This document shows positions 542-17,717 of a stretch of 32,000 nt of DNA, piece by piece. The stretch comes from Gemmata obscuriglobus. Its GTDB lineage: Bacteria; Planctomycetota; Planctomycetia; Gemmatales; Gemmataceae. Position 1 is the stretch's first letter, and the number at the start of each line of letters is the position of its first letter. Position numbers and translations under genes: made by a program. The stretch lies in the NCBI RefSeq assembly GCF_008065095.1, contig NZ_CP042911.1, positions 8,580,001 to 8,612,000 of the forward strand. The letters run 5' to 3'. A model generated the notes under the pieces. That model saw only the letters and a list, made by a program, of their open reading frames with translations. It was not told the origin of the DNA and searched no databases.

Positions 542-1688
542 ATGTCTCCTTGCACCCTGGTCGATGCCCTGGCGGCGGTTCCCGATCCCCGCAGCAAGCA
601 CGGCCTTATCCACCCACTCGCCCCCTTCCTCGGACTCGTCGCCCTCGCCATGCTCATGGGGCGCACCAGCCTCAATGGCATCGCTCGCTTCGGGCGACAG
701 CACGGACCCGCCCTCGCCCATGCCCTCGGCTTCCGACGCGGCAAGACCCCGGCCGTTTCCACGCTCTCCCGCACCCTGCGACGCTTCGACGCCGACCAAC
801 TGGAGCACGTCCTCTCGTACTGGATCGCCAGCCGCGTCGACCCGGCCGCCTTCACACACATCTCCATCGACGGCAAGACCCTTCGAGGCTCTCGCAACGG
901 CGCGATCCCCGGTCAGCACCTGCTGGCCGCATACGCCCCCACCGTCGGTGCCGTACTCGCCCAGGTCAAGGTCGATGCGAGCACCAACGAGCACAAGGCC
1001 GCCTTGACGCTCCTCGGCATTCTGCCGCTGCGAGGGAAGGTCGTGGTCGGCGACGCCATGTTCTGCCAGCGAGACCTGGCCGAGGAGGTGGTCGGGGCCG
1101 GCGGCGACTACGTGCTCACGGTGAAGGACAACCAACCCGGATTGGGGATCGACATCCGAGCCGGGTTCGCCTTCGAGACCGCCGCCCGATCGATCGCGGC
1201 GGCCACTTCCCCCTGGGGATCGGCCTCCGCCCGCCCCGAGCCGCATCGCCACGACCGTCGATAAGGGTCACGGCCGCATCGAGAAGCGGACGCTGCAAAC
1301 GACCTCGATTCTGACGTGCTCGCCGACGTGGGCGGGGGTGAAGCAGGGCTTCCAGTTGACGCGTGAGCGGACGGTCCGAGGCCAAACGACGGTCGAAGTG
1401 CATTTCGGCATCACGAGCCTGTCGGCCGAGAAGGCGGATGCGGCCACACTCCTGAACCATGTGCGGACGCACTGGCGCATCGAGAACGAACTGCATTACG
1501 TGCGTGACGTGACACTGGGCGAGGACGCGTGTCGTGTGCGCATGGGGCACGCACCACAGGTGCTGGCGGCGCTGCGGAACGCCGTGGTGCACCTGTGGCG
1601 TGAGGTCAAGGCGGTGAGTTGCCCGGAGGCGATCGAGCGGCTCCAGATGGACCCGGCAATGGCCAAGGGACTTATCGGAGTTACGTAG
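542..1688 (+). pseudogene. ISAs1-family transposase split by a +1 frame change
   Basis: The N-terminal part (ATG 542, SD AGGAAGG) runs in one frame to a stop at 1264. The conserved TVDKGHGRIEKRTLQTT...HWRIENELHYVRDVTLGED part runs in the next frame, open from about 1140 to 1688. The switch must lie between about 1140 and 1256. The C5/G4 run CTTCCCCCTGGGG at about 1207-1219 is the obvious slippage or indel site. Confidence 0.8.
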
Positions 1689-1863: not shown

Positions 1864-1892
1864 TTGTCCGTATTTGGCACCGTCGATATACT
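1864..1892 (+). promoter_or_regulatory. candidate sigma70-like promoter for the FAS-like cluster
   Basis: TTGTCC (1864-1869), a 17-nt spacer, then TATACT (1887-1892), in the only AT-richer patch upstream of ATG 1933. The promoter consensus for this lineage is not known to me. Confidence 0.25.
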
Positions 1893-1932: not shown

Positions 1933-2421
1933 ATGCGGTTCCACCTGATCGACCGAATCGACCGCTGCGAGCCGGGCAAGTCCCTCGCCGCCGCGAAGTT
2001 CCTGGCGCTGGGCGAGGAGTACCTCAAGGACCACTTCCCGCAGTTCCCGGTCATGCCCGGCGTGCTGATGCTCCAATCGTGTGTCGAGGCGGCCGCATGG
2101 CTGTGGCGCGCCACCACGGATTACGAGCACCCGGTGATCGTGCTGCGCGATCTGAAACTTGTAAAGTACGGGACGTTCATGCTGCCCGGGCACCGCATGG
2201 ACGTCACCGTCGAGTTGACCAAAACGGACGCCGCCGCCGGCACCGCGACGTTTAAGGCCGAGGGCGCGAACGAATCGCGTGAATCGACGGTGAAGGCGAA
2301 CTTCGTGCTCCACGGTTACTCGCTCGCGGGTCGCGGCCCGACCGGGGACGCGACCGACGCGAAGTTGATCGAACACTGGAAGGCGCGGTGGGCGCTGCTT
2401 ACCGGCGGGTTGCGCGGCTAA
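1933..2421 (+). CDS. FabZ/FabA-like hotdog-fold dehydratase paralog with the catalytic Glu position replaced by Gln
   Basis: Carries the motif DHFPQFPVMPGVLMLQSCVEA, against the FabZ pattern HFPxxPxxPGVLxxEAxAQ. His is present, and the Glu position reads Gln. I prefer the start MRFHLIDRI over the ORF-track start at 1864. Confidence 0.8.
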   Translation: MRFHLIDRIDRCEPGKSLAAAKFLALGEEYLKDHFPQFPVMPGVLMLQSCVEAAAWLWRATTDYEHPVIVLRDLKLVKYGTFMLPGHRMDVTVELTKTDAAAGTATFKAEGANESRESTVKANFVLHGYSLAGRGPTGDATDAKLIEHWKARWALLTGGLRG

Positions 2422-2501
2422 CAGTTTGGAGTGAGACGGTTTAGTTCCGTCTCTCCTCTCAAAGAAACAGGCGGACCGGGAACGATAGACAGGACGCACG
2501 A

Positions 2502-3266
2502 ATGCTGCTGAAGGACCAAATCGCGCTGGTAACGGGCGGGAGCCGCGGGATCGGCCGCGGGATCGTGCTGGCGCTCGCACGCGAAGGCGCGAAGGTGACC
2601 TTCGTTTACCACAGCAACGCCGACGCCGCCAACGCACTGGCGCAAGAGGTGGCCGCTGCAGGTGGCACCGCGAAGGGTGTTCAGGCCGACGTGGCCGATC
2701 CGGCCGCCGCACAGACCGTTGTGGACGGCGTTCTGGCGGAACACGGGCGGCTCGATATTCTGGTGAACAACGCCGGCGTTATCCGGGACAAGCTGTTCCT
2801 GAAAATGGAAGCGGACGACTGGAACGCGGTCATCAACACGAACCTGACCGGGACGTTCGCGTTCTGCAAGGCCGTCGCCCAGCAGATGGCCTTCAAGCAG
2901 CGGTCCGGGCGGATCGTGAACGTGTCCAGCATCGCCGCCGAACACGTGAACAAGGGCCAGGCGAACTACGCGGCGAGCAAGGGCGCGGTCAACAGCTTCA
3001 CCCGCGTGCTGGCCGCGGAACTGGCCGCCCGCAACGTGCTGGTGAACGCGGTGGCCCCCGGGTTCATCGCGACCGACATGAGCCAGGCTGTGCGCAACCT
3101 GGCGGGCGAAGACAACCTCAAAAAGATCATTCCGGTGCGGCGGCTCGGGACACCGGACGACATCGCCAACGTGGTCCTCTTCCTTTGCGGCCCGGCCGCG
3201 GCGTACGTCACCGGGCAGGTGATTACCGTGGACGGCGGCCTCAGCCTCGGGGCGGTGTCCGGCTGA
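2502..3266 (+). CDS. fabG: 3-oxoacyl-ACP reductase (SDR family, FabG-like)
   Basis: Shows TGGSRGIG Rossmann motif, NNAG, the S...YxxxK triad (SSIAAE..., NYAASK) and PGFIATDM. AGGA lies 7 nt upstream of the ATG. Confidence 0.9.
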   Translation: MLLKDQIALVTGGSRGIGRGIVLALAREGAKVTFVYHSNADAANALAQEVAAAGGTAKGVQADVADPAAAQTVVDGVLAEHGRLDILVNNAGVIRDKLFLKMEADDWNAVINTNLTGTFAFCKAVAQQMAFKQRSGRIVNVSSIAAEHVNKGQANYAASKGAVNSFTRVLAAELAARNVLVNAVAPGFIATDMSQAVRNLAGEDNLKKIIPVRRLGTPDDIANVVLFLCGPAAAYVTGQVITVDGGLSLGAVSG

Positions 3267-3293
3267 GCCCCAAGCCGGTTGGAGAACACTCAG

Positions 3294-3683
3294 ATGACAC
3301 GCGAAGATATTTTCGACAAGGTCCGCAAGACCCTGATTGAGGCCCTGAGCGTCGACGACGATCAGGTCACCCCGACCGCCCGGCTCAAGGGCGACCTGGG
3401 GGCCGAGTCCATCGACTTCCTGGACATCGTGTTCAGGCTCGAGAAGCAGTTCGACGTGAAGATCCCGCGCGAAGAGCTCTTCCCCGAGTCGATCTTCCAG
3501 GGCGACGCGGCGTTCGTCTCCGGCGGGAAGGTCACCGCGGTGGGGCTGGCCGAGCTCGAAAAGCAGATGCCCTACGCGGACCTCGCCGAGTTCAAAAAGG
3601 ACCCGCGTCTGGACAAGGTCGAGGACCTGTTCACCGTGGAACTGATCGTTCGTTACCTGGAATCCAAAGTCGGGAAGAAGTGA
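3294..3683 (+). CDS. acyl carrier protein with a roughly 45-aa internal insertion (129 aa)
   Basis: Phosphopantetheine-site motif DLGAESIDFLDIVFRLE. A helix-IV-like LFTVELIVRYLESKV lies at the C-terminus, separated by an extra segment PESIFQGD...PRLDKVED. ATG 3294 has GGAG 7 nt upstream. The ORF-track TTG at 3279 overlaps that SD. Confidence 0.8.
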   Translation: MTREDIFDKVRKTLIEALSVDDDQVTPTARLKGDLGAESIDFLDIVFRLEKQFDVKIPREELFPESIFQGDAAFVSGGKVTAVGLAELEKQMPYADLAEFKKDPRLDKVEDLFTVELIVRYLESKVGKK

Positions 3684-3769
3684 GCCGCGGGCGGCGCGGA
3701 GGCGGGTGCCCGGGCGCCGCGTTGCCCGCTCCCCGGCTCGAACGGCATGCCCCGCACTGAGAACTGTTT

Positions 3770-4261
3770 ATGCGCTGGACGTGGATCGACCGGTTCGTGG
3801 CGTTCGAGTCCGGCAAATCGGCGACCGCGGTGAAGAACCTCAGTCTCGCCGAAGACCACTTCGCGGACCACTTCCCGGGCTTCCCGGTGATGCCGGCGCC
3901 CCTCATCCTCGAAGGGCTCGCCCAGACCGGCGGCATTCTCGTCGGCGAGGCTCGGCAGTACCGCGAGAACGTTGTGCTCGCGAAAATGTCCAACATGAAG
4001 TTCCACCGCGACGCCCTCGCGGGCGAACAATTGACCTACACGACCACGCTGATCGACCTCAACGACACCGGGGCTCGGGTCGCCGCGACCGCGCGCAGTG
4101 GTGCCGATCTGGTTGTGGAAGGTGAGATTCTGTTCGCGCATGCGAACCCGAGCCAGCTCCCGCCGGGGTTGCCCGACACCAAATTCGTGTTCAACGGTGA
4201 GCTGACACACCTGTTGCGGATGGCCGCAGCGGTAAGTAAACCTGCGGCCGCCGGCGGGTAG
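3770..4261 (+). CDS. FabZ/FabA-like hotdog-fold dehydratase (His and Glu both present)
   Basis: Motif DHFPGFPVMPAPLILEGLAQTGG matches the FabZ active-site motif, including Glu. Confidence 0.85.
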   Translation: MRWTWIDRFVAFESGKSATAVKNLSLAEDHFADHFPGFPVMPAPLILEGLAQTGGILVGEARQYRENVVLAKMSNMKFHRDALAGEQLTYTTTLIDLNDTGARVAATARSGADLVVEGEILFAHANPSQLPPGLPDTKFVFNGELTHLLRMAAAVSKPAAAGG

Positions 4262-4287
4262 CGGTACTACGGAGCGCGAAACGATCT

Positions 4288-4316
4288 GAAGCCCCGTTCG
4301 GGGCTTCTCTTATTTC
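4288..4316 (+). terminator. rho-independent terminator-like hairpin inside the cluster
   Basis: GAAGCCCC (4288-4295), loop GTTC, GGGGCTTC (4300-4307), followed by TCTTATTTC. It lies 27 nt after the dehydratase stop. Confidence 0.6.
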
Positions 4317-4433
4317 GCTCGGGCCTAATAACCCAAATTACCCGTTTTACCGCTCTTTCCGGAACGCAAAACCTGAGAGTGTAAGCGAATCGGACGCAAG
4401 TCCGGCGGCGGAATACACTACCACTTGAAATAA

Positions 4434-4487
4434 CCGGTACCCGCGCGGAGCGGACCGGACCCGCGGAGTTCAGCGCGAGTGGCCGAC
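4434..4487 (+). repeat. copy 1 of a dispersed roughly 55-65 nt repeat (core CGCGGAGCGGACCGGAC-N-CGCGGAG)
   Basis: A 17-nt core identical to 13634-13650. Flanking similarity is CCGG(T/C)A upstream and TTCA..GCG(A/T)GAGTGG..CC.ACA downstream. It abuts or overlaps the KS-paralog start codon. Confidence 0.6.
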
Positions 4488-5762
4488 ATGGCAAGTACCC
4501 CCCGCCGCACCGTGCTGACCGGGTTCGGCGTGCTCAGTCCGATCGGTTCGACGCCCGAAGCGTTCTGGGACGCCCTGGTCGCGGGGGTGTGCGGCGTTCG
4601 CACGATCTCGCTCCTGGACGCGTCCGAACTGCCGTGCCACATCGCGGGCGAGGTGCCGAACTTCTCCGCGAAGGCGATGATCGACAAGAGCTACCGCCGC
4701 TCGCTCAACGCGATGGCACGCACCGTCGAGTTGGGGGTGATCGGGTCGCAGCTCGGGCTGGCCAACGCCGGGATCGCGAAGGGGACCGTTCCGGCGCACC
4801 GGATCGGGATCGAGTTCGCGTCGCTCATGGGTGCTACCGAACTGAACGACATGGCCGCGGCCAGCCGGATCGCGTCGCCCGACGGAAAAACGCTGGACTA
4901 CGGGGTCTGGGGCTCGGCCGGGCTGAACGAGATCGCGCCGCTCTGGATGCTCAAGTACCTGCCGAACATGCCGGCGTGTCACACGACCATCCTCTACGAC
5001 ATCCAGGGGCCGAGCAACACCCAGATCCCCGGCGACACCTCCGGCCTCGTCGCCCTCGCCGAAGCGGCCCGCATCATCCGCCGCGACGCGGCCGACGTGA
5101 TGGTCGTGGGCAGCAGCGAGGGGCGCATCAACCCGATCACGCTGAGCCGCTACAACCTGTTCCTGCAACTGTCGAAACGCAACGACGACCCGGCGCACGC
5201 GGTCCGGCCGTTCGACCTCACCCGCGACGGCACCGTGTACGGCGAAGGGGCGGCGGTGTTCGCCCTGGAAGAGCTTGAACACGCCAGGGGCCGGAAGGCG
5301 AACATCGTCGGCGAACTGGTCGGGTGGGCGGCGGGGGTGGACCGCGGGAAGAAGGGGCCGGGGCTGGCCCGCGTCATCCGGAACGCGCTGGCGGCGGCCG
5401 GCATTGAGCCGAAGGACGTGGACCACGTCAACGCGCACGGCACCGGCACCACGGTGGGCGATGCGTTCGAGGCCCGCGGCATTGCCGACGTGTTCGGGCG
5501 GGATGTGCCGGTTTTCGCGCCGCTGAGCCGGTTCGGCAACCTCGGGGCCGCGTCCGGGCTCATGGAACTGGCGTGCAGCGTGCAGGCGTTCAAGAACGGC
5601 CTGCTGCCCGGAACGCTGAACCACGAGAGCCCCGATCCGGCGTGTCCTATTAGCGTCCACGTTGGCGCGCCCCGGCCCGTCACGAAGCCGTACGTCGTGA
5701 AGGTCACTTACACCGACCTGGGCCAGTGTGCGGCGGCGGTGGTGAAGCGGTGGGATTCGTAG
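4479..5762 (+). CDS. beta-ketoacyl synthase paralog lacking the catalytic Cys (chain-length-factor-like partner)
   Basis: Has the KS fold throughout. The active-site position reads [11 protein letters not shown] instead of TACxxG (Cys to Asp). The first His is kept (VNAHGTGT). The second His motif reads [11 protein letters not shown] (His to Asn). The start is either GTG 4479 or ATG 4488. Confidence 0.85.
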
Positions 5763-5868
5763 ACCGCGGAGCAGTTTTGACCGGGGGCGAGCGGGATCGA
5801 GAGGCGGGAGCCAGTTCTTCGCCTTTCCTGTCCCCGTCGAACGCTCTTCTTTGGTGAGAGGCGGAGAG

Positions 5869-7158
5869 ATGCGTAAACGGGTCGTCATCACCGGGATGGG
5901 CGTCATCACCCCGCTGGGGCACAGCGTGGCCGAGCTGTTCGCCAACTCCGCCGCGGGGCGCACCGCGGTCGGCCCGATCCGGCACTTCGACGCGCGCACG
6001 TTCCCGACCACCTTCGCCTCCGAGGTAAAGGGGTTCGATCTCGCGAAGTACCTTCCGGACGCGAACCGTTTCGACAACTGCGGCGTGAACACGAAGTTCG
6101 CGCTGGCCGCGGGCAAGCAGGCCCTCGCCGACGCCGGGCTGCTCGACGTGAAGGGCGACCGGTCGCGGATGGGCGTGTACCTCGGCTCCGGCGAGGGCAA
6201 AGAGGACTTCGAGGCCCTCACGACCAGCACCGCGCAGGCCACCGCCCCGGGCGAGCGGGTGTGCAACATCCGCGAGGCCGTCGGGCTGCTGTACCGGCGC
6301 CTCAGCGGCCCGCAAGAGGCCGAGCAAGAGATGTACGGCCCGTCCGGCTACCTCGCCGACACGTTCGTGCTGGAGGGGCCGTTCGCGTCGTGCCAAACGG
6401 CGTGCGCGGCCAGCTCGCAGGCCATCGGCGAGGCGGCCGAGATGATCCGCACCGGCGAGGCGGACGTGATGCTCGCCGGCGGGTCGCACAGCATGATCAT
6501 GCCGCTGGGCATCACCGGGTTCAACCGGCTGACGGCCCTCTCGCAGCGCAACGACAGCCCCCAGACCGCCAGCCGCCCGTTCGACCTGACCCGCGACGGG
6601 TTCGTCATCGGCGAGGGGGCGGGGCTGGTCGTGCTGGAGGACCTGGAGCACGCGAAGAAGCGCGGCGCGAACATCCTCGCCGAGCTGACCGGGTACGGCT
6701 CGACGGCCGACGCGTTCCGGATGACGGACCCGCACCCGGAAGGGCGCGGGGCGATCCGCTGCATGCGGGACGCGCTCGCGGACGCCGGGCTGAACCCCAC
6801 CGACATCGGGTACATCAACGCGCACGGCACCAGCACCCAGGCGAACGACTCCGCGGAGACGGCGGCCATCAAGGCGGTGTTCGGCGATTACGCCTACAAG
6901 CTGCCGGTGTCGAGCAGCAAAAGCATGCTGGGCCATTTAATCGCTGCGGCCGGCGTGGCCGAACTGGTGATTTCGGTAATGGCGCTTCAGAAAGGTGTGA
7001 TCCCCCCGACGATCAATTTGGAGACGCCGGACCCGGTGTGCGACCTCGATTACGTCCCCAGGACCGCGCGCGAGGTGCGGTTCGACCACGTGCTGTCGAA
7101 CAGCTTCGGCTTCGGCGGGCAGAACATCGCACTGGTCGCGAGCGCGTTCCGGGGGTGA
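5869..7158 (+). CDS. beta-ketoacyl-ACP synthase (FabF/KAS II-like), catalytically intact
   Basis: Shows [15 protein letters not shown] (Cys), INAHGTST (His), [15 protein letters not shown] (Lys/His) and the C-terminal NSFGFGGQN. Start [12 protein letters not shown] has GAGAGG upstream. It carries an extra roughly 40-aa segment ([10 protein letters not shown]...EQEMYGPSG). Confidence 0.9.
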
Positions 7159-7312
7159 GTCGCTCCGCGGCCCCCGTGAATGGCCGGGGCGGTGCTCCGA
7201 TGATAAGAAGTTGGTGATTCTAACCAGGAGCCGGTGACAGGAGGTTGCCCCGTCGGTCAAGCGGCGGGCGGCGCTGGTCGCGTTGGATTCATTCCGACCC
7301 GGGAGGTCCAGG

Positions 7313-8305
7313 GTGGTTTTCTGGCTGACGATCGTCGTCTCGCTACTTATCGCGGTCCCGCCGGTCGCGGCCGGGTTATTCCTGTCCGTCGTGTACCTGT
7401 ACGTGCGATGGCGGTACATGGGGTTCCTGACCCGCATCTTCCAGGAGAAGCCGCTGTTCGTGGTGCCGCGCGGCGAGCCGGACCCGCTGGCCAGCGAGGT
7501 CACCATTGCCGCGGCCGACGGGCTGGCGCTGCGCGGGTGTTACATCCCGACCACCGCGCCCGAACGTAAAGGCGTGATCCTGTTCGGCCTGGAATTCGGC
7601 TCCAACCGGTGGGCGTGTCGCCAGTACTGCCAGGCGCTGATCGCGTCCGGCTACGACGTGTTCGCGGTCGAAACGCGGAACCAGGGCGAGAGCGAGCGCG
7701 ATGCGAACTACGAACCGCTCCAGTGGGTCACGGACCGGGACGTGTCCGACATGCGGTCGGCGGTCGCGTACCTGAAGTCGCGCCCGGACGCTCCGGCCAA
7801 CGGGATCGGCATTTTCGGGATCAGCAAGGGAGGCAGCACCGGGCTGATCGTCGCCGCCGCCGACCCCTGGGTGAAGTGCGTCGTCACCGACGGTATGTAC
7901 GGCACGCACACGACGCTGGTGCCGTACATGCAGCGCTGGATTCAGATCTACAGCGGAAACCGGCGCATCCAGAAGGTGCTGCCGAACTGGTTCTACGGCG
8001 CGATCGGCACCGTGGGCGTGAAGAAGGTGGCACGCAACCGCGGGGTGACGTACCCGAGTGTGGAAAAGGCCGCGGCGAAGTTGTTCCGGCCGCTGCTGAT
8101 GATCCACGGCGGCGGCGACACGTACATCAAGCCGGAAATGGCCCAGTCGCTGTTCGCCCGCGCGACCGGTCGTAAGAAGCTGTGGGTGGTTCCCAACGCG
8201 AAACACAACCAGGCGTTGCACGTCGCGACCGACGATTACAACCGCACGGTGACCGAGTTCTTCGACCGGCACCTGGCGAAAAAAGCCCTGGAGGCGGTGG
8301 GGTAG
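7313..8305 (+). CDS. membrane-anchored alpha/beta hydrolase (Ser-Asp-His; S9/dienelactone-hydrolase-like)
   Basis: N-terminal TM helix VFWLTIVVSLLIAVPPVAAGLFLSVVYLYV. Nucleophile elbow GISKGGS, HGGGDTYI (Asp) and NAKHNQ (His). GTG 7313 has GGGAGG (7301-7306) 6 nt upstream, so I prefer it to the ORF-track TTG at 7283. Confidence 0.75.
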   Translation: MVFWLTIVVSLLIAVPPVAAGLFLSVVYLYVRWRYMGFLTRIFQEKPLFVVPRGEPDPLASEVTIAAADGLALRGCYIPTTAPERKGVILFGLEFGSNRWACRQYCQALIASGYDVFAVETRNQGESERDANYEPLQWVTDRDVSDMRSAVAYLKSRPDAPANGIGIFGISKGGSTGLIVAAADPWVKCVVTDGMYGTHTTLVPYMQRWIQIYSGNRRIQKVLPNWFYGAIGTVGVKKVARNRGVTYPSVEKAAAKLFRPLLMIHGGGDTYIKPEMAQSLFARATGRKKLWVVPNAKHNQALHVATDDYNRTVTEFFDRHLAKKALEAVG

Positions 8306-8368
8306 GTCGGCTTGACGCTGGGAGAGACGGGGGGAATAAGGCGGCGCTCGTTTCCCCCGGAGCCGCTC

Positions 8369-9202
8369 ATGCGTACCTGTCTCGTGACCCTCGTCATCGC
8401 CGCTCTGCCGGCCGCCGCGGCAGAGCCCGCCGTTCTGCCCGCCCCCCGGAACACCGCCGACCGGCACGTGCAGACCGTGTTGAAGCGGCTGAAGACCGAG
8501 GGCATGAGCGGTGTTATCGAGTTCGTCTTCGACGAGAAGACCGGGAGCCCGCCGGCGGCCGACAAACGGGCCGAACTGGCGGCCAACTTTCTCCGCGTCC
8601 GCAACGTGCAGGTGCAGGCGCTCGGGAAGCCGGCCGGCGACCCGGAGTTGCTCCGCGCCGACGTGTCCGGCCGGTCGCTGGTGCGGTACGTGTACGCCGA
8701 GCCGATGGAGCGCGGGCTGGTCATCTGGCAGTTCACCTTTTACCGCGCCGAAGGCGGTGACTGGCGGTGCCTCACCTTCCAGTCGGGCGACGGCTCCGAG
8801 GCGGAGTTCCGGGCGCTCGCGGCGGACGCCGACTTCGCGGACGCGAAGAGGAACGCCGGCGCCGCGCTCGACGCGCTGAAGGCGGGGGGCGTGTCCGGGC
8901 TGTTCGACGTGGTTTGGGCCGACGGAAAAAACGTCATCTCTGCGGAGCGCGGTCCGGTGGAGAAGACGTTCGCCAAGCTCCGCGACGACGCCGCGGCGCT
9001 GCTCGGCAAGTCACAGGGCGATGCCGAGTGGGTGCGGACGGAGGCGGTGGGCCGGCGGCTGGTCCGGTTCATCTACCTGGACAAGTACGAGCGCGGCACG
9101 GCGGTGTGGAAGTTCACCCTGTACCGCGTGGGCGGCGAATGGAAGTGGTGCAACGTGAACTTCAACGGCGACCCGGCGACCAGTTTCTCGGTCGTCCCGT
9201 GA
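8369..9202 (+). CDS. exported hypothetical protein built from two tandem homologous domains
   Basis: Signal peptide MRTCLVTLVIAALPAAAAEP. There is a clear internal duplication: GRSLVRYVYAEPMERGLVIWQFTFYRAEGGDWRCLTFQSGD versus GRRLVRFIYLDKYERGTAVWKFTLYRVGGEWKWCNVNFNGD. I recognise no family. Confidence 0.6.
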   Translation: MRTCLVTLVIAALPAAAAEPAVLPAPRNTADRHVQTVLKRLKTEGMSGVIEFVFDEKTGSPPAADKRAELAANFLRVRNVQVQALGKPAGDPELLRADVSGRSLVRYVYAEPMERGLVIWQFTFYRAEGGDWRCLTFQSGDGSEAEFRALAADADFADAKRNAGAALDALKAGGVSGLFDVVWADGKNVISAERGPVEKTFAKLRDDAAALLGKSQGDAEWVRTEAVGRRLVRFIYLDKYERGTAVWKFTLYRVGGEWKWCNVNFNGDPATSFSVVP

Positions 9203-9230
9203 GCCGCCCGAAGGTTCGGTGAAACTGTCA

Positions 9231-9257
9231 GAAACCCGCGGCCCAGCCGCGGGTTTC
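9231..9257 (+). terminator. GC-rich hairpin between the exported-protein gene and the GH3 gene (no U-tract)
   Basis: GAAACCCGCGG (9231-9241), loop CCCAG, CCGCGGGTTTC (9247-9257): a perfect 11-bp stem. Confidence 0.4.
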
Positions 9258-9275
9258 GTCGCGCGCGGGTGTGCT

Positions 9276-10970
9276 ATGTCTCTGAAACGCTTCCTCCTCG
9301 TCCGCCTCGGTCGGCTCCTGACCTACCCGGTGCGGCGGCAGTTGCGCCAGTTCGAGGTCGCGTGCCAGAACCCCGAAGCGGTTCAAACGGAACTGCTCCG
9401 CGACATCATCCGCAAGCAGGCGGACACGCAGTTCGGCCGCGACCACAAGTTCGGCACGGTGCGCGCCGTCGCGGACTTCCGGGCGAACGTCCCGGTCGCG
9501 CCTTATGAGTACGTTAGCCCCTACATCGAAAAAGTGCAGAACGGCGACACCCGCGCGCTCTTGGCCGACAAGCGGGTGCTGATGTTCGCCCTCACGAGCG
9601 GCACCACCGCGAGCCGGAAGCTGATCCCGGTGACGGACGCCTACCTGGCGGCGTACCGGCGCGGGTGGAACATGTGGGGCGTGAAGATGTACCGCGACAA
9701 CCGCGGGCGCCGGATCGCCATGCGGCCCATCGTGCAGCTCGGCGGCGACCCGGAAGAGTTCCGCACCCCGGCGGGCACCCCGTGCGGCAACCTCTCCGGC
9801 TACACCGCGATGGTGCAGAAGCGGATCATTAAGCGGATGTACGCGGTGCCGTACGTGACCGGCAAAATCAAGGACGCCCGGGCGCGCTACTACGTCGCGC
9901 TGCGGTTCTCGGTCGGCCGTAACGTGTCGCAACTGATGGCCGCCAACCCGAGCACGCTCGTCCAACTGGCCCGCACCCTCGACGCCGAAAAAGAGCACCT
10001 GCTGCGCGACCTTCAGAACGGCACGCTCCGCGCGGACCTCGACATTCCTGCCGACGTTCGTGCGTACCTGGAGCCGCGGGTGTCCCGCGACGCGGCCCGG
10101 GCGCGCGAGCTGTCCGCGGTCGCGTCGAAGATGGGTCGGCTGTACCCGCAGGACGTGTGGCCCACGGAAGGGACGGTCATCAACACCTGGACCGGCGGCA
10201 GTATGGGGCCGTACCTGCGCCAGTTGCCGCAGTATTACGGCACACCGCCGGTTCACGATCTCGGGCTGCTCGCGAGCGAGGGCCGGTTCACGATCCCGCT
10301 GTCCGGCGGCACCGCGAGCGGCGTGCTCGACATCTGGTCGCACTACTTCGAGTTCGTGCCGGAAGCCGAAATGGAGTCCGCGCGGCCGACGGTGCTCGGC
10401 GCGCACGAACTTCAGGAGGGCAAGAGCTACTTCATCCTGCCGACCACGAGTTACGGCCTGTACCGCTACCACATTTCGGACCTCGTTCGCGTCACCGGGT
10501 TCTACGGTCGCACGCCCGAAGTCGAGTTCCTCGGGAAGGGCCACCGGTTCGCGAACCTCACCGGCGAGAAGCTGAGCGAGTACCACGTGACCAAGGCGTT
10601 CGACGCGGTGGCGCAGGGCGTGCCGCTTCCCGTGACCGCGTACTCGATCGCGCCGATCTGGGACGACCGGCAACCGTACTACGCACTCTTCCTCGAAGAG
10701 CCGGACGCCGCGAACGGGTCCCTCAAGCCGTTCCTGGCGGCGCTGGACGCGCGACTCGGCGTGGAGAACGTGGAGTACGCCGCGAAGCGCGAGAGCGGGC
10801 GGCTCGGGGCGCTCCGGGCCGCGGTTGTCCCCGCGGGCACCTGGGGGGCATGGGATCGCGCGCGACTGGCACAAACGGGCGGCTCGCCGGAGCAGTACAA
10901 GCACCCGTGCCTGATCGGTGACCTGAAGTTCCGCGACACGATGACCGTCTTACGTGAGGTCGGCGCCTAG
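9276..10970 (+). CDS. GH3-family (auxin-responsive promoter family) adenylate-forming acyl-acid amido synthetase homolog
   Basis: Shows FALTSGTTASRKLIPVT (the GH3/ANL nucleotide motif), LLASEGRF (compare YASSE) and YRYHISDLVRVTGF (compare YRLGDVV). Length is about 565 aa. I prefer start MSLKRF. Confidence 0.85.
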   Translation: MSLKRFLLVRLGRLLTYPVRRQLRQFEVACQNPEAVQTELLRDIIRKQADTQFGRDHKFGTVRAVADFRANVPVAPYEYVSPYIEKVQNGDTRALLADKRVLMFALTSGTTASRKLIPVTDAYLAAYRRGWNMWGVKMYRDNRGRRIAMRPIVQLGGDPEEFRTPAGTPCGNLSGYTAMVQKRIIKRMYAVPYVTGKIKDARARYYVALRFSVGRNVSQLMAANPSTLVQLARTLDAEKEHLLRDLQNGTLRADLDIPADVRAYLEPRVSRDAARARELSAVASKMGRLYPQDVWPTEGTVINTWTGGSMGPYLRQLPQYYGTPPVHDLGLLASEGRFTIPLSGGTASGVLDIWSHYFEFVPEAEMESARPTVLGAHELQEGKSYFILPTTSYGLYRYHISDLVRVTGFYGRTPEVEFLGKGHRFANLTGEKLSEYHVTKAFDAVAQGVPLPVTAYSIAPIWDDRQPYYALFLEEPDAANGSLKPFLAALDARLGVENVEYAAKRESGRLGALRAAVVPAGTWGAWDRARLAQTGGSPEQYKHPCLIGDLKFRDTMTVLREVGA

Positions 10971-11342: not shown

Positions 11343-12560
11343 ATGCCAGCCGCCGCGCCCGCAATTACTGTCGACACCGCCGCCGCCGTGGAGCGGCTCT
11401 TGCGCTTCCTGTCGGTCAACGCGATCACCGGGCACGAAGGTCCCATCGGTAAGGAACTCGCCGCGGCGCTTCAGGAAGTCGGCGTGCCGGCGAAGGCCAT
11501 CACCTTCGACGACGCCCACACGCGCATCCCCGAGCCGACGCCGATCGGCAACCTCATCGTCAAACTTCCCGGTACCGGGAAGAAGGGCGCGCAGCCGATC
11601 CTGTTCATGACGCACATGGACACGGTCCCGCTGTGCGCCGGTGCGAAGCCGAAAATCGCCGGCAAGCGGGTCGTAAACGAACTGGAAGGCACCACCGCGT
11701 TGGGCGGCGACAACCGCACGGGGTGTGCGGTGCTCGTAACCCTGGCCGCGGAACTCATCAAGCAGAAACTCCCGCACCCGCCCATCACGATGCTGTTCAC
11801 GGTCCGCGAGGAGAGCGGGCTGTTCGGCGCGAAGCACCTCAACCCCGTCGACCTGGGCGGCCCCGCCGTGGGCTTCAACTTCGACGGCCGCAGCGCCGCG
11901 GACGTGATCGTCGGCGCGATCGGGGCCGACCGCTGGTTCGTGGACATTCGCGGGAAAGCCGCGCACGCCGGGGTCGCTCCGGAAAAGGGCATCTCCGCCA
12001 CAATGGTACTCGCGCTGGCAATGGCCGAGGTGTACGAGGGCGGGTGGTTCGGCAAGGTGATCAAGGACGGCCGCGAGGGGACCAGTAACGTCGGGCTCGT
12101 GGGCACCGCCGACGGCAAGAGCGCCGGGGACGCGACCAACGTGGTCACGGACTTCGTACACGTGAAGGGCGAGAGCCGTAGCCACGACGCGAAGTTCGTG
12201 CGCGAGATCACCGCCGCTTATAAGACCGCGTTCACCAACGCCGCCGCGAAGGTCAAAGACCACGAGGGCCGGGCCGCGAAAGTGAAGTTCACTTCGCGAC
12301 TCGATTACGTGCCGTTCCGGCTGAAGTCCGACGCGCCTGTTGTGAAACTGGCCGAGGTGGCAATTCAGAAGATCGGGCGCACGCCGAACCTGCGCACGAC
12401 GAACGGCGGGCTGGACGCGAACTGGATGGTGAAGCACGGCATCCCGACGGTGACCTTCGGGGCCGGACAGAACGAGATTCACACGGTCAAGGAGTTCGTG
12501 GACCTGCGCGAGTTCGAGAGCGCGTGCCAATTGGCACTGGTGCTCGCGACCGCCGAATGA
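11343..12560 (+). CDS. M20-family metallopeptidase (peptidase T-like)
   Basis: Shows HMDTVP, GGDNRTGCAV (bridging Asp) and REESGLFGAKH (Glu-Glu). Length is 405 aa, similar to PepT. Confidence 0.85.
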   Translation: MPAAAPAITVDTAAAVERLLRFLSVNAITGHEGPIGKELAAALQEVGVPAKAITFDDAHTRIPEPTPIGNLIVKLPGTGKKGAQPILFMTHMDTVPLCAGAKPKIAGKRVVNELEGTTALGGDNRTGCAVLVTLAAELIKQKLPHPPITMLFTVREESGLFGAKHLNPVDLGGPAVGFNFDGRSAADVIVGAIGADRWFVDIRGKAAHAGVAPEKGISATMVLALAMAEVYEGGWFGKVIKDGREGTSNVGLVGTADGKSAGDATNVVTDFVHVKGESRSHDAKFVREITAAYKTAFTNAAAKVKDHEGRAAKVKFTSRLDYVPFRLKSDAPVVKLAEVAIQKIGRTPNLRTTNGGLDANWMVKHGIPTVTFGAGQNEIHTVKEFVDLREFESACQLALVLATAE

Positions 12561-12657
12561 ATGAGTGGAATGCTAAACGTCTTGGGGATCGTGCCACAAT
12601 GAGTTCGGCTTCGTGGCCGGCCCGGGACGAGGGCGTGTGGCATCAACGCTCGACGGA

Positions 12658-12771
12658 TGAGCCGAGAAGATTTTGACACGATCGACAGGATGAACAGGAT
12701 TTCAACTCGATCTGTCTTGATCCGGTGAATCCTGTTCATCCTGTCAAAAATTGTGTTCGTGCATACGAGAC
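12658..12771 (+). repeat. palindromic ACAGGAT-heptamer repeat element, copy B
   Basis: Same orientation and layout as copy A. GACAGGATGAACAGGAT (12684-12700) is perfectly complementary to ATCCTGTTCATCCTGTC (12729-12745). Shared flanks are TGAGCC.A...GATTTTGAC and TTCGT..A.ACGAG. Confidence 0.8.
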
Positions 12772-12831
12772 TCGCACGGACCGAAACTGCGATCATCTAC
12801 CCACTCCGCCATCAGTTCTTATCAGGCGCAC

Positions 12832-12864
12832 GCAACGAACCCGGCTGGTGGCCGGGTTCGTTGC
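12832..12864. terminator. bidirectional terminator-like hairpin between convergent genes
   Basis: GCAACGAACCCGGC (12832-12845), loop TGGTG, GCCGGGTTCGTTGC (12851-12864): a perfect 14-bp stem. It lies 29 nt beyond the minus-strand gene stop. Confidence 0.55.
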
Positions 12865-12892
12865 ATTCCGTTACCTGGTACTGATGCAGCGC

Positions 12893-13411
12893 TTACACCG
12901 CGGCGTTGAGCGGCGGGATGGTGCGGTTGTACCCGCCGGAGCGGTGCAGGATCGACCACGCTTCTGCGGTCCGGCCCCCGGCTTCGACGGTCACCAGGAA
13001 CCGCCCGCCGTGAACTTCGGACTCGTAGTAACGGGCGTCGTCTTCGGGGATGCCCAGGCCGATGAGCGCCCCCACCAGCCCGAGGATCGCGGCGCCGCCG
13101 GCGGCGTTGAGCAGCACCGTGCCCAGCGTGCCGATCGCCAGCACCGGCCCGATCACCGGAATGGTTCCGGCGAGTACACCCAGCCCCACCAGCGCACCGG
13201 CTCCGGCGCCTACTACGGCTCCGGCGGCCGCGCCCTCGCCCGCAAGCGTCTCGTTGTTGCGCTCGTTGACCATGTTGCCGTCGGCGTCGCGGGCGATCAT
13301 CCCGATGTTATCGTCGCTGAAGCCCGCGTCACGCAGCTCGTTGATCGCCGTTTCGGCTTCCGAACGGGTGTAGAACACGCCCACAACCGCGTTCGCCGTT
13401 GCCTTCTTCAT
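12893..13411 (-). CDS. general-stress-protein-like membrane protein (YflT/17M-like N-domain plus glycine-zipper segment)
   Basis: Start MKKATANAVVGVFYTRSEAETAINELRDAGF with GGGAGA upstream. Contains a Gly/Ala zipper GAAAGAVVGAGAGALVGLGVLAGTIPVIGPVLAIGTLG. The C-terminus reads EDDARYYESEVHGGRFLVTVE. The ORF-track N-terminal extension to 13687 is Arg-rich and implausible. Confidence 0.7.
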   Translation of the reverse strand: MKKATANAVVGVFYTRSEAETAINELRDAGFSDDNIGMIARDADGNMVNERNNETLAGEGAAAGAVVGAGAGALVGLGVLAGTIPVIGPVLAIGTLGTVLLNAAGGAAILGLVGALIGLGIPEDDARYYESEVHGGRFLVTVEAGGRTAEAWSILHRSGGYNRTIPPLNAAV

Positions 13412-13623
13412 GTCCGTTCTCCCGACTGAGAAAGGGCGGGCATGGGTTTCCCCTGCCGGCCCGAACCCGATGCAGACGGAGAAGGTAGAAGCACACGCGG
13501 TGCCGAATGTTCGGCTCCACTTCCAGAAACCCGAAGTGTTCTCATCGCGCGGCGTGATTCTCGCCTTTGAGCGTTGTCCGCGAACGGAGTTGAACGAGCG
13601 CCTCACGCGTCGGATCCGCAGGG

Positions 13624-13690
13624 CCGGCATGCACGCGGAGCGGACCGGACGCGCGGAGCATTCACTCACGGCGTGAGTGGGCCACACTCA
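13624..13690 (+). repeat. copy 2 of the dispersed repeat (core CGCGGAGCGGACCGGAC-N-CGCGGAG)
   Basis: Matches 4434-4487. This copy also contains the hairpin CACTCA-cggcg-TGAGTG. Confidence 0.6.
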
Positions 13691-13912
13691 TAAGGCTGTG
13701 CATGGGTGCGTCACATCAACTTGAAATCACTGAAGTGTGGTTGAAGAAGAGCGGCGATTGGGTGCGTCACCCGCCTGCCGACGCAGGCGGGTGCAACCGC
13801 GGCGTGTTCGGGTCTCTCGGCCGATCGCCAAGGCCGCGCTAGCGGGAATGGACCGCACTTGGTATCACGCGCCTTGAGGGCAAAGGCTCGCGGCGCGGCA
13901 CCGGTATCGTGG

Positions 13913-15391
13913 TCAGAAGTCCGTTTTGTACTTTTCGCCGAGCTTGCGGCGGGCGTCGGACATGGTCTGATCGATCTTGCTCCAGGTCGCGATCCGGCGC
14001 TTGTGGTCGTCCGCGACCACCTTCGCCATCTCGCCCTGAACCTGGGGCAGGTTGGTTTGCACCCCCTGGGGCGCGACGATCGCCCCGCGGTACCCGCCCC
14101 ACCACCCGCCGTAATGCGGCCAGCCCCAGTTCGGGTACACCCCCCACTGCGTGTACGAGTAGCCCTTCGACGCGGCCGCGGTCACGTCAACCGGCACCCC
14201 GCGCAGGCTGGCCGCGATGGCACGCAGCCCCTGGGCGGCCTGGTGCGCCGCGTCCACAGCCGCCGGGTCCACGTTGCGCCGCGAGAGCTGCTCCAGTTGG
14301 GCCGCGGCCTTATCGTGCCACGTCGCGGTCTTGCCGTAGTCGCTGCTGTCCTTCACGTATTTGATGTCCGTCAGGATGGCGTCGGCCGCGCGCAGGTAGC
14401 GCTGGGTGGCGCCGGCGCTCGGTGCGTCGCCGGGTGCGGCGGGCGCGTCGGTGCCCTCCGGCCGCGGGAACGCGAACAGCGACACGATGCGCCGCAGGTC
14501 GTCGCCCGACAGCGGCCCCGACAGCGTCATCGTCTTGTCGGTGAAGGTCGCCTCCCACTTCTCCAGGCCCGCGAGCGAGACCCCGTACCCGTCGATCATT
14601 TCAAGGAACAGGTCCTTCAGCACCCCCTTGTACCGGTTCACGTCCTCGGGGAAATCGACGACCAGTTTCCCGGCCACGGCGTCGGTCACCTTTGCGGAGA
14701 ACGTGAGCCCTTTTACGCGGCTCAAGAACGCCGCCAGCGCGGACTGGTTCACGCCCTTGTGCTTGACCAGCACCGGGCTGACGCTCAAGCCGTACCGGAG
14801 GAGCGCCGGCTCCAGCACGTCTTCGAGGTCGAGCGCGATCGTGACCGTGTCTCCCCCGGCGGCGTCCGCGGCCGTCTTGAGGTACGGGACCAGCGGGGGC
14901 AGCTTGCCGCCGCGGTGCGCCTTGAGCCACCGCGACACGTACTGCCGGTCGGCCGGGTACACCGCTGCGAGCGTCTCGCCCGGGAAGCTGGTGAAGTACA
15001 CCTCGCGCGGCGACACGACGGTCAGTTGCCCCGCGATCTCGTCCGTGGTGCCGCCCTCCTGGGCCGCGAGCGTCTTGAAGTTGGGGAGCCCCTTCACCTT
15101 CACGAGCCCGACCTGGAAGTCGCGGCTCATGGTGGTGAAGTTGACCTCCCCGGCGATGGCGACGAGGTCGGCGTCGGGCGGGAAGAACCCGAGCCCGCCG
15201 TGCCCGCTCTGCTGAACCTTCTCGGCCCACTTGTCCCTCTTGGCGAGCGGGCTGGCGGCGGCGGCCTTCACGTCGATGAGGACGAGGGCGTTGGTGTTGG
15301 CGGAGCTGTGCTTGAGCAGGTCGTCGTAGGGGCCGGCGCCGGCGGCCGGCGCGCACGCGAGCAGCGCCGCGACGGCAAGGGAGCGGTACAT
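13913..15391 (-). CDS. secreted hypothetical protein (492 aa) with a Trp/Gly/Tyr-rich patch near the C-terminus
   Basis: Signal peptide MYRSLAVAALLACAPAAGAGP. Amino-acid composition is balanced, unlike the Arg-rich plus-strand ORF 13859-15424 that overlaps it. I recognise no family. Confidence 0.7.
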   Translation of the reverse strand: MYRSLAVAALLACAPAAGAGPYDDLLKHSSANTNALVLIDVKAAAASPLAKRDKWAEKVQQSGHGGLGFFPPDADLVAIAGEVNFTTMSRDFQVGLVKVKGLPNFKTLAAQEGGTTDEIAGQLTVVSPREVYFTSFPGETLAAVYPADRQYVSRWLKAHRGGKLPPLVPYLKTAADAAGGDTVTIALDLEDVLEPALLRYGLSVSPVLVKHKGVNQSALAAFLSRVKGLTFSAKVTDAVAGKLVVDFPEDVNRYKGVLKDLFLEMIDGYGVSLAGLEKWEATFTDKTMTLSGPLSGDDLRRIVSLFAFPRPEGTDAPAAPGDAPSAGATQRYLRAADAILTDIKYVKDSSDYGKTATWHDKAAAQLEQLSRRNVDPAAVDAAHQAAQGLRAIAASLRGVPVDVTAAASKGYSYTQWGVYPNWGWPHYGGWWGGYRGAIVAPQGVQTNLPQVQGEMAKVVADDHKRRIATWSKIDQTMSDARRKLGEKYKTDF

Positions 15392-15989
15392 CGGGTGTCC
15401 TCGGTGGTGCGGGGGCGACGGTGATTTTAGTGCGCGGCCGATTCAGGACCGGTCTTCAGGGTACAGCGGCCCCGCGCCGTCACGCCGCGGCACGCGGGGA
15501 GTGAAACAGCGGAAATAATGGCGGCGCGTGCTCGTTGTCTTTGCACCCCGGAGGGGGCGCCGGGCGTCGCACAGGGCGGAAGCCCCGTGACTCAAGCTCC
15601 GCACGCGGGTCACACTCAAGCGGGCCGAAAGCGGTCGCGCACCAGCGGCGCCAGCCTGCCCTGGTCCAGATGTTGTGAGAATTGACGAGCGTCCATCCGT
15701 TTCGGTGATTCGCCCAACCCGTCTTTTCGCGCTTTTGAACCAGAATCGCGGGCGGAAAAGCCCGAATTCCTCAAGCCCTCTTGTTTCTGTACCGGACGTG
15801 CGCAAAAATAACTCCGACAACCACACCTAACGATGCACCGGCTTCGGGCCGCCCGCGTCGGGGTGTCGGGTCGCTTGTCCCCTACCGCCCACCGGCGGAC
15901 CGGGCGGGTAGCCCGGCAACCGCGGCGTGGGCGCTTCCAGGGCCGGTGCCGGCGTTTACCGGCGCGGTGTGAGCCGAGGGTCAAGCGAC

Positions 15990-17483: not shown

Positions 17484-17717
17484 CGCCAGCAACGAACGGG
17501 AGCGAAGTATGAGTCGTTGATGCGACGGTCGGAACTGGCTCGGTGCCCCGACCCGCTCATTCTCGTGCCTCCGGCTATCCCGCCGAGAGTCCCCCTTTTC
17601 TATGGGGCCGGCGGGATTAGAATATAACTCATTCGGGGCGCGATCGGTCGATCCGGTATGCCCGCTCGCGCGGGCCGGTTCGGGGGTTGCTCGGGGCACC
17701 CCCAAGAGGAGTTCCGC

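Follow-up and report, generated by a model that had tools for sequence, protein, structure and literature searches.

A type II fatty acid synthase-like gene cluster with a non-OlsH GH3 enzyme, conserved from Gemmata to other PVC bacteria

What might a planctomycete make with a fatty acid-type elongation line that has its own acyl carrier protein, two unequal ketosynthases and a GH3-family adenylating enzyme? The question is raised by a 32,000-nucleotide stretch of Gemmata obscuriglobus DNA (contig NZ_CP042911.1, positions 8,580,001 to 8,612,000; hereafter the window), in which nine genes, all on the + strand, occupy positions 1933-10970 in the order DH1-KR-ACP-DH2-KSa-KSb-ABH-HYP-GH3 (Table 1). 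They encode two dehydratases (DH), a ketoreductase (KR), an acyl carrier protein (ACP), a pair of ketosynthases (KS), an alpha/beta hydrolase (ABH), an exported protein (HYP) and the GH3 enzyme. Coordinates are those of the public gene calls on CP025958.1 (GCA_003149495.1), where the DNA is identical and the KR protein is encoded identically; Pfam and NCBIfam agree with them, and all nine co-directional genes of the original prediction, which was made from the sequence alone, are present over this span. We find that they form an uncharacterised lipid cluster of type II fatty acid synthase (FAS)/polyketide synthase (PKS)-like character, distinguished by a GH3 enzyme that is not OlsH, a FabF-derived KS partner predicted to be dead and an ACP bearing an insertion. 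Our favoured account, tentative and a little short of an even chance, is that a dedicated elongation line builds a chain that the hydrolase off-loads and the GH3 enzyme links to an amino acid as an amide. The product is probably an amino-acid-containing envelope lipid.

Searching with the GH3 protein, we retrieved 80 loci from species-representative genomes, nearly all labelled Gemmatales, Gemmataceae or unclassified Planctomycetota (a few metagenome-assembled genome labels are discordant), and 80 more from metagenomes. Synteny was read by tblastn with the window proteins on these related loci, and the orthologue alignments described below take their sequences from the same 160. The comparison of related genomes, which the original prediction had proposed as a check, reveals an eight-gene core, DH1-KR-ACP-DH2-KSa-KSb-ABH-GH3, kept in the same order and on the same strand in about 50 contigs, whose GH3 proteins range in identity from 97% to 48%. 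Recurrence of one order in some 50 independent contigs argues that the arrangement is not due to chance. Starting from one GH3 member at 45% identity, we also recovered contexts outside the Gemmatales. Aquisphaera giovannonii (Isosphaerales) and the related contig L169 have DH-ACP-DH-KS-KS-ABH-GH3-DUF1571-response regulator-...-enolase-superfamily enzyme-second hydrolase, with no KR, and contig L170 has DH-KR-ACP-DH-KS-KS-ABH-GH3. GCA_037439485 (L167) has aminotransferase-DH-B12 radical SAM-ACP-DH-KS-KS-ABH-GH3-methyltransferase-sulfatase-DUF1571-enolase enzyme-hydrolase, and Candidatus Ancaeobacter aquaticus (Auribacterota, PVC group) has ACP-GH3-methyltransferase-DUF1571-hydrolase-...-DH-KR-DH-KS-KS-ABH. 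The invariant set is two DHs, a long ACP, the KS pair, ABH and GH3. The cluster is a conserved family of the PVC superphylum, found in Gemmatales, Isosphaerales and Auribacterota, and is not peculiar to G. obscuriglobus.

The two KS proteins are about 33% identical and differ in their active sites. KSb has an intact Cys-His-His triad, as do all 72 sequences aligned (72/72); it scores 483 bits on the fabF model TIGR03150 (cut-off 493.75), passes the FabF-II subfamily model NF005589, and finds its best PDB matches in FabF, at about 360 bits. KSa is 427 aa long and contains both the N- and C-terminal ketoacyl-synt domains by Pfam. At the position of its active-site Cys, 51 of 58 orthologues have Asp, 6 have Glu, 1 has Gly and none has Cys, and the second His is Asn in 42 of the 58. 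KSa of the distant clusters is crippled in other ways (in Ancaeobacter the Cys is retained and the first His is lost), and the full triad is found in no lineage examined. These residues predict a non-condensing, catalytically dead partner, and the pairing of a KS with a Cys-less KS, as originally described, is confirmed by a KSb triad that is intact and a KSa triad that reads Asp, His, Asn.

For both KS proteins, ordinary FabF outscores actinorhodin, ishigamide and other KS/chain-length factor (CLF) structures in the PDB ranking. The CLF of aromatic type II PKSs has Gln at the Cys position, where KSa orthologues have Asp or Glu; the cyclase/aromatase genes of such systems are absent from the window, and the actinorhodin CLF reaches 104 bits against KSa. 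The highly reducing type II PKS of ishigamide, Iga11/Iga12, uses a KS/CLF heterodimer with a KR and a DH for a reduced chain, as we propose here, and ishigamide terminates as an amide with an amino acid. However, Iga11 scores (133 bits for KSa) lie far below the FabF scores of KSa and KSb, and the two systems differ in organism group, ACP type and amide-forming enzyme.

A parallel of another kind comes from within the phylum. Anammox Cluster I (amxACP, amxFabZ, amxFabF-mut/amxFabF2) is a putative ladderane cluster (PMC10139942; bioRxiv 10.64898/2026.05.19.726425) whose FabF-mut/FabF2 proteins pair up as a KS/CLF-like heterodimer with malonyl-ACP decarboxylating activity (bioRxiv 10.64898/2026.05.19.726425). 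Like the window cluster, it places a triad-less FabF directly 5' of an intact FabF and has a private FabZ and a private ACP with an unusual structural element. It is this position of a mutated KS directly 5' of an intact one, as in FabF-mut/FabF2, that leads us to read the KSa/KSb pair as KS/CLF-like. The clusters differ in that amxFabF-mut has Val/Thr where KSa has Asp, in that Cluster I has a single DH and the window two, and in that the window lacks the B12 radical SAM and phytoene-dehydrogenase-like genes; GH3 and ABH are extra here, as is DUF1571 in relatives. Among the relatives, L167 alone has a B12 radical SAM gene, which scores 62 bits vs 360 on the ladderane-type model. Of the systems characterised so far, Cluster I comes nearest to the KS pair, by likeness of design. 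A specific kinship of KSa, KSb or DH2 with anammox proteins is not seen in the PDB score rankings. For the KS proteins, E. coli and Thermus FabF outscore PDB 9s5h (KSb, 295 bits on 9s5h_B vs about 360 for ordinary FabF; KSa, 128 on 9s5h_C vs 217 for Thermus FabF), and DH2 scores 61 bits on FabZ vs 50-54 on 8ay*/7qv0; the PDB entry names suggest that 9s5h and 8ay*/7qv0 are anammox proteins, 9s5h presumably being the FabF-mut/FabF2 heterodimer.

The ACP supplies a second distinguishing feature. Helices I-III are canonical and the Ser is present in 52/52 sequences, but PDB ACPs align to residues 1-64 only, and none of those aligned has an insertion of about 45 residues. The insertion is conserved in orthologues, including those of Aquisphaera, Ancaeobacter and L167, and the protein scores 64 bits against NCBIfam ACP cut-offs of 66-71, all of which it misses. 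The insertion-bearing ACP is a hallmark of the cluster family. A dedicated, atypical ACP had been predicted, and this is borne out, with the insertion lying before helix IV and not in the tail.

Pfam and NCBIfam also support the predicted FabG-type KR and two different hotdog DHs. Both DHs have precomputed matches to the ApeI-like family PF22818, and both score below the cut-offs of NF000582 (DH1 62 and DH2 87, cut-off 113) and TIGR01750 (DH1 57 and DH2 88, cut-off 155). DH2, whose best PDB match is FabZ, has its His and Glu in 57/57 orthologues. DH1 keeps the catalytic His (54/54 orthologues) and in the window has Gln at the position of the catalytic Glu; this position is Gln in 43 orthologues, Glu in 10 and His in 1, with Glu retained in Aquisphaera, Ancaeobacter and L167 and Gln found in most Gemmatales. 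The KR is an optional member of the family, missing from the Aquisphaera and L169 clusters and replaced by the B12 radical SAM gene in L167. A cluster can thus do without a KR of its own, and housekeeping reductases acting in trans must be usable.

This affects an argument about the product. Scans of the window proteins with Pfam and NCBIfam find no enoyl reductase, malonyl transferase or acc genes within 1933-10970, as originally noted, and likewise no fabD, fabH, fabI, plsX or acc in the cluster. The original prediction took the absence of these genes to favour an unsaturated (polyene-like) or hydroxylated product. The argument from a missing enoyl reductase to a polyene is weakened by the Aquisphaera and L169 clusters, where a KR is missing in cis too, and we regard it as weak evidence. 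A short-chain dehydrogenase/reductase (SDR) with an N-terminal extension is encoded 0.5-3 kb 5' of DH1 in about 10 loci (L126 122-934, L140 1355-2116, L114 2352-3173, L011 51-881) and could be the missing second reductase. Its scores are generically FabG-like or FabL-like and all below cut-off (FabL 158-177 vs 328), and with such generic SDR scores it stays a tentative candidate for the missing enoyl reductase.

The third distinguishing feature is the GH3 enzyme. It matches plant JAR1 over its full length (103 bits), and 147 sequences conserve its nucleotide motifs TSGTT, ASEGR and YRYHISD; with all three Pfam GH3 domains in place, its predicted identity as a GH3-family adenylating enzyme is secure. 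Among bacterial GH3s only OlsH has been characterised; its partner is OlsI, an alpha/beta hydrolase encoded next to it (PMC12493201). This planctomycete pair, described from Singulisphaera acidiphila in 2025, makes N-acyl-ornithine lipids from free fatty acids; OlsH joins the free fatty acid to ornithine at the expense of ATP and needs neither ACP nor CoA (PMC12493201). On the NCBIfam OlsH equivalog NF052613, the window GH3 reaches 121 bits where the cut-off is 620, and all tested subfamily members likewise fall below it. The FAS-linked GH3 and the OlsH-clade protein have different accessions in G. palustris (WP_210658859.1 vs WP_210663547.1) and in A. giovannonii (WP_148593974.1 vs WP_148592567.1), so both paralogues coexist in these genomes. 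Given the low equivalog score and the accession mismatch in two genomes, we rejected true orthology; judged by sequence, the window GH3 is a distant paralogue of OlsH, not OlsH itself. None of the retrieved loci holds a second GH3 copy. A search of 1.8 billion cluster representatives shows that the enzyme belongs to a large subfamily at 30-62% identity, and the 150 closest representatives include no GH3-ACP fusion. Fusions seen in the subfamily (P0241, P0232, P0203) are fatty-acid hydroxylase-GH3, DUF2062-GH3 and GH3 with a cyclic-nucleotide-binding domain.

The window cluster and OlsH/OlsI share a phylum, a GH3 beside an alpha/beta hydrolase and the three nucleotide-binding motifs, and N-acyl amino acid chemistry would fit both. 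ABH lies directly 5' of GH3 in nearly all of our loci, HYP intervening in the window. By gene adjacency, the ABH-GH3 pairing may be of the same design as OlsI/OlsH. The ols operon differs in lacking the six-gene FAS-like module and the DUF1571 lipoprotein that usually accompanies GH3 in this family, and the window has no OlsG-type methyltransferase. A methyltransferase following GH3 in L066 was considered as an OlsG equivalent and rejected, being of the protein-lysine methyltransferase type with a planctomycete domain.

ABH was predicted to be a membrane-anchored Ser-Asp-His hydrolase, and both the triad and the N-terminal hydrophobic helix are seen. Its motifs GISKGG, GDTY and KHN are conserved in 89 orthologues, and the AlphaFold model (AF2, 30 orthologues, pLDDT 81) has an N-terminal helix at residues 2-45 followed by a lidded hydrolase core. 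Foldseek places it among lipid/aryl esterases, monoacylglycerol lipases and the PKS off-loading enzymes DcsB and GrgF; NCBIfam gives only weak matches, to a lactonase (48 bits vs a cut-off of 400) and a polyhydroxyalkanoate depolymerase. From the modelled fold, ABH is a candidate thioesterase or acyltransferase.

HYP, the exported two-domain protein of the original prediction, is indeed encoded between ABH and GH3, but its membership of the system does not hold up. Among the loci compared it is restricted to G. obscuriglobus (L001) and G. algarum (L004), and it is a lineage-specific insertion, not a core member. A single-sequence structure model was unusable (pLDDT 38), and the idea that HYP is a diverged DUF1571/LolA-like protein was dropped at an hhalign probability of 1%. 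In other loci the ABH|GH3 and KSa|KSb junctions hold either nothing or unrelated guest genes, and they behave as landing sites for such genes. Besides HYP in the window, guests occur at L023 8248-9603, L088 8552-9577, L070 3048-4040, L020 3718-4839 and L028 4032-5432. We rejected them as hidden core members because the guests share no kinship with one another (they comprise DUF4058, a GFO/IDH/MocA oxidoreductase and unknown families).

We propose that KSb and the predicted dead KSa would form a KS/CLF-like heterodimer that extends an acyl chain on the insertion-bearing ACP, with the KR and the two FabZ-type DHs processing the beta-carbon and the housekeeping FAS supplying malonyl loading and any enoyl reduction. 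ABH would remove the finished chain from the ACP by hydrolysis or transfer, and GH3 would adenylate the free acid and then link it to an amino acid as an amide, giving an envelope lipid of the N-acyl amino acid type. The amide step is suggested by the biochemistry of characterised GH3s, the ABH-GH3 adjacency, the fatty-acid-hydroxylase-GH3 fusion and the amino-acid enzymes of related clusters. These enzymes include members of the enolase-superfamily muconate-cycloisomerase/N-acyl-amino-acid-racemase group and M20/M28 peptidases and, in L167 (1992-5199 and the 11757-12896 region, including the B12 radical SAM), an aminotransferase and a 2-ketoarginine-methyltransferase-like enzyme, a combination known to make beta-methyl amino acids.

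The envelope as destination is suggested by the DUF1571 lipoproteins. After GH3, most relatives have genes for a DUF1571 (LolA/MucB-like) lipoprotein and a response regulator, whereas G. obscuriglobus has an M20 peptidase there, and HYP before GH3. About 22 Gemmatales loci encode, 3' of GH3, a DUF1571 protein whose signal peptide is of the lipoprotein type (LxGC), together with a response regulator, and DUF1571 lipoproteins also occur in the non-Gemmatales clusters L164-L169. The DUF1571 gene is missing from the window and from within 10 kb in G. massiliana, and the response regulator is likewise missing from the window. DUF1571 proteins have a lipobox signal peptide and a Pro-rich linker (e.g. 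L074 11792-12697, L026 3698-4795, L164 11926-13407), and in most cases the response regulator is the next gene. Several unidentified amino lipids are reported from G. obscuriglobus and G. algarum (PMC10817699), and these could be the cluster's product. It is possible, though on balance somewhat doubtful, that the cluster represents an undescribed class of envelope lipid in several PVC lineages, in which a FabF/dead-FabF heterodimer builds a chain, perhaps unsaturated or hydroxylated, on the insertion-bearing ACP and a non-OlsH GH3 joins it to an amino acid. Gene content, active-site residues, the linkage and conservation of the eight genes, the paralogy to OlsH and the fold class of ABH are observed; the heterodimer, the sequence of steps, the amide chemistry of GH3, and the product with its amino acid, chain type and destination are inferences.

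Several observations weigh against GH3 as the terminal, amide-forming enzyme of a dedicated line. The ACP gene of Ancaeobacter lies directly 5' of GH3, which fits an early, loading role for GH3; genes for carrier-loading adenylating enzymes often neighbour the carrier gene. The gene logic parallels that of aryl polyene (APE) clusters, in which the adenylating enzyme ApeH loads a starter. At L032-L036, L038, L039 and L052 the GH3 gene is solitary, no FAS gene lying within 10 kb of it, and Limnoglobus roseus is one genome with a lone GH3. Finally, the amino-acid-related neighbours occur outside the Gemmatales and not in the window. In favour of the amide-forming role, the ABH-GH3 adjacency persists at five further loci (L041, L046, L055, L065 and L066) without FAS genes alongside. 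A solitary GH3 is twice found just 3' of a Poly_export gene (L035 6798-11692, L156 6478-11656), with a Wzy-type O-antigen ligase-like gene (L035) or a 492-aa open reading frame (ORF) without Pfam match (L156) in between, and this neighbourhood may be a second recurring context. The metagenomic locus L159 (239-6777) has DH-KR-ACP-DH, a single KS, about 0.9 kb without an ORF of at least 90 aa, and then GH3, with neither KSa nor ABH; it may be a decaying copy of the cluster.

The main alternative follows APE logic: GH3 would adenylate an aryl, hydroxy or fatty acid and pass it to the holo-ACP thiol as a starter, the KS/CLF pair, KR and DHs would extend it, and ABH would release the chain or transfer it to a membrane acceptor. 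APE clusters have a half-size CLF (ApeC), tandem ACPs (ApeE/ApeF), an ANL-type loader (ApeH), a third KS (ApeR), a thioesterase (ApeK), LolA/LolB-like proteins and an RND exporter (PMC8358021, PMC8253772). The window cluster shares with them a type II FAS-like iterative logic, a KS with a CLF, a KR (ApeQ), two hotdog DHs (ApeI, ApeP), an adenylating enzyme and a releasing hydrolase, and its relatives share a LolA-like exported protein, a parallel in gene content that speaks for starter loading (PMC8253772). Most defining APE features are absent, however. KSa is full length (427 aa), a single ACP gene with an insertion replaces the tandem ACPs in the window and all relatives, there are two KS genes only and no ApeR, GH3 is the sole adenylating enzyme in place of an ANL-type ApeH, and an alpha/beta hydrolase stands in place of an annotated thioesterase. 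The window has no LolA/LolB-like, RND, acyl- or glycosyl-transferase genes, and the relatives' DUF1571/MucB_RseB-type lipoprotein comes without an RND gene. The APE-type architecture of the original prediction can thus be kept for its shared logic but not for its defining parts. An antiSMASH survey of Gemmata genomes reported classes that exclude arylpolyene (PMC10817699). Compared with OlsH/OlsI, anammox Cluster I, APE and ishigamide, the window cluster has no gene-for-gene match to a characterised biosynthetic gene cluster, as had been anticipated.

Three further points favour starter loading: the Ancaeobacter ACP-GH3 neighbourhood, the lack of a FabH-type initiator in the cluster (by Pfam and NCBIfam), and plant GH3.12, which by its PDB names activates 4-substituted benzoates. 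A loader is not required, though, if a KS/CLF-like FabF pair can prime itself by malonyl-ACP decarboxylation, as in the anammox preprint, and the ABH-GH3 pairs that in several genomes have no ACP or KS gene close by, like the missing GH3-ACP fusions, count against it. All characterised GH3s, from plants and OlsH, transfer to an amino-acid amine and none loads a carrier protein (PMC12493201). We consider starter loading unlikely. The original prediction had remarked on a GH3 enzyme where an acyl-CoA-ligase-like enzyme would be expected; the GH3 is there, but it need not substitute for a starter loader given OlsH/OlsI, whose amide chemistry makes a tail-end, amide-forming role more likely than starter loading.

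A second alternative would make GH3 and ABH the Gemmatales equivalents of OlsH/OlsI for an ornithine or trimethylornithine lipid, with the FAS module supplying the free 3-hydroxy or piggy-back fatty acid. The adjacency of GH3 and hydrolase matches the OlsH/OlsI operon, OlsH needs free fatty acids of unexplained source, and ornithine lipids are reported from Gemmataceae. Set against these are the score of 121 bits, far under the OlsH cut-off, for a GH3 whose tested subfamily members fare no better, the coexistence of OlsH-clade and FAS-linked GH3 in G. palustris and A. giovannonii, and the lack of an OlsG-type methyltransferase in the window, all of which leave this explanation quite improbable.

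Very improbable too is a special fatty-acid module, in which a DH and a KS would act in the manner of FabA/FabB to make an unusual or unsaturated fatty acid for ordinary membrane lipids (e.g. omega-5 monoenes), GH3 and ABH serving to recycle or activate it. In its favour we count that the two KS proteins resemble FabF most closely, that Gemmata has C16:1 omega-5c among its major fatty acids, and that dedicated DH and KS pairs (FabA/FabB) usually signal anaerobic unsaturated-fatty-acid synthesis. But known unsaturated-fatty-acid modules have no private insertion-bearing ACP, no dead KS and no tight linkage to genes for GH3, ABH and an exported lipoprotein, and some Gemmataceae have the GH3 without FAS genes within 10 kb. 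That the cluster is the organism's housekeeping type II FAS deserves almost no credence: although KSb passes the FabF-II subfamily model and comes near the fabF equivalog, and KR comes near the FabG cut-off, ACP, DH1, DH2, KR and KSb all fall below equivalog cut-offs, KSa appears dead, the ACP insertion is not shown by aligned PDB ACPs, the cluster lacks fabD, fabH, fabI, plsX and acc, the Aquisphaera cluster lacks a KR, and several relatives have the GH3 without the FAS module within 10 kb. Low equivalog scores, an apparently inactive KSa, the unusual ACP and the lack of fabD, fabH and fabI in the cluster support the accessory character originally proposed.

The surroundings of the cluster were read from the same window (Table 1). 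The insertion sequence (IS) that the original prediction placed 220 bp upstream is real, but it is broken into two ORFs, the first with Pfam DDE_Tnp_1_assoc and DDE_Tnp_1 and the second with the C-terminal part of DDE_Tnp_1, and its gap to DH1 is 244 bp. A frameshift or decay of the copy probably accounts for the split; in related genomes other genes occupy this position. The promoter match 5' of DH1 is suggestive by position, and the hairpin could mark a boundary between two transcription units; three terminator-like sites are seen in the region where 9.3 are expected. As weak evidence, the two signals fit the two gene blocks of the original prediction. Downstream, the M20 peptidase is conserved in the closest Gemmata only, and its membership in the cluster is doubtful. 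Beyond it lie nusA and then infB (17658-21302), which encodes an unusually long IF-2 of 1214 aa whose N-terminal part overlaps a stretch of 78% G+C (18001-19000), the window maximum. Long + strand ORFs without family match at 12725-15424, where the public annotation has a minus-strand YflT-domain gene starting near 12893, may be high-G+C artefacts. Scans of the window for tRNAs and Rfam families gave no matches.

Table 1. Features of the window in and around the cluster
Feature	Position	Strand	Remarks
Broken IS, DDE_Tnp_1 transposase	542..1688	+	two ORFs, 542-1264 and 1338-1688; Pfam, public gene calls; context, outside cluster
Sigma-70-like promoter match	1864..1892	+	41 bp 5' of DH1; sole match in 11.5 kb, 0.8 expected by chance
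DH1, FabZ/ApeI-like hotdog dehydratase	1933..2421	+	Pfam FabA; precomputed ApeI-like match
KR, FabG-type 3-oxoacyl-ACP reductase	2502..3266	+	TIGR01830 282 bits vs cut-off 297.75; NF009466 passed
ACP with ~45-residue insertion between helix III and helix IV	3294..3683	+	PP-binding domain
DH2, FabZ-type dehydratase	3770..4261	+	His and Glu intact; fabZ 88 bits vs cut-off 155
Terminator-like GC hairpin with T-rich tail	4288..4307	+	8-bp stem, 6 GC pairs; in 217-bp DH2-KSa gap
KSa, full-length FabF-derived KS partner, CLF-like	4479..5762	+	Cys to Asp, second His to Asn
KSb, intact FabF-type elongating KS	5869..7158	+	Cys-His-His present
ABH, membrane-anchored alpha/beta hydrolase, Ser-Asp-His	7313..8305	+	GxSxG, Asp, His; N-terminal hydrophobic helix
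HYP, exported protein of two repeats, no known family	8369..9202	+	no Pfam/NCBIfam match
GH3-family adenylating enzyme, acyl acid amido synthetase type	9276..10970	+	Pfam GH3 N, M and C domains
M20 (PepT-like) metallopeptidase, downstream	11364..12560	+	synteny in L006, L008, L009, L010, L011, L081, L084 only

A bacterial GH3 was first assigned a function in 2025, and the first report of a CLF-like partner in a fatty-acid-type synthase dates from 2026; here both are combined in one conserved operon. G. obscuriglobus can be cultured and so offers a relative in which to study the FabF/FabF-mut heterodimer and a specialised ACP, the anammox system not being genetically tractable. The cluster is a candidate source of the Gemmata amino lipids and for a second functional lineage of bacterial GH3. 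If GH3 were instead to load the carrier protein directly, no earlier GH3 would be known to make a thioester in place of an amide. Knowing the product would shed light on envelope diversification among PVC bacteria and would open a source of new ATP-dependent, CoA-independent amide-forming enzymes.

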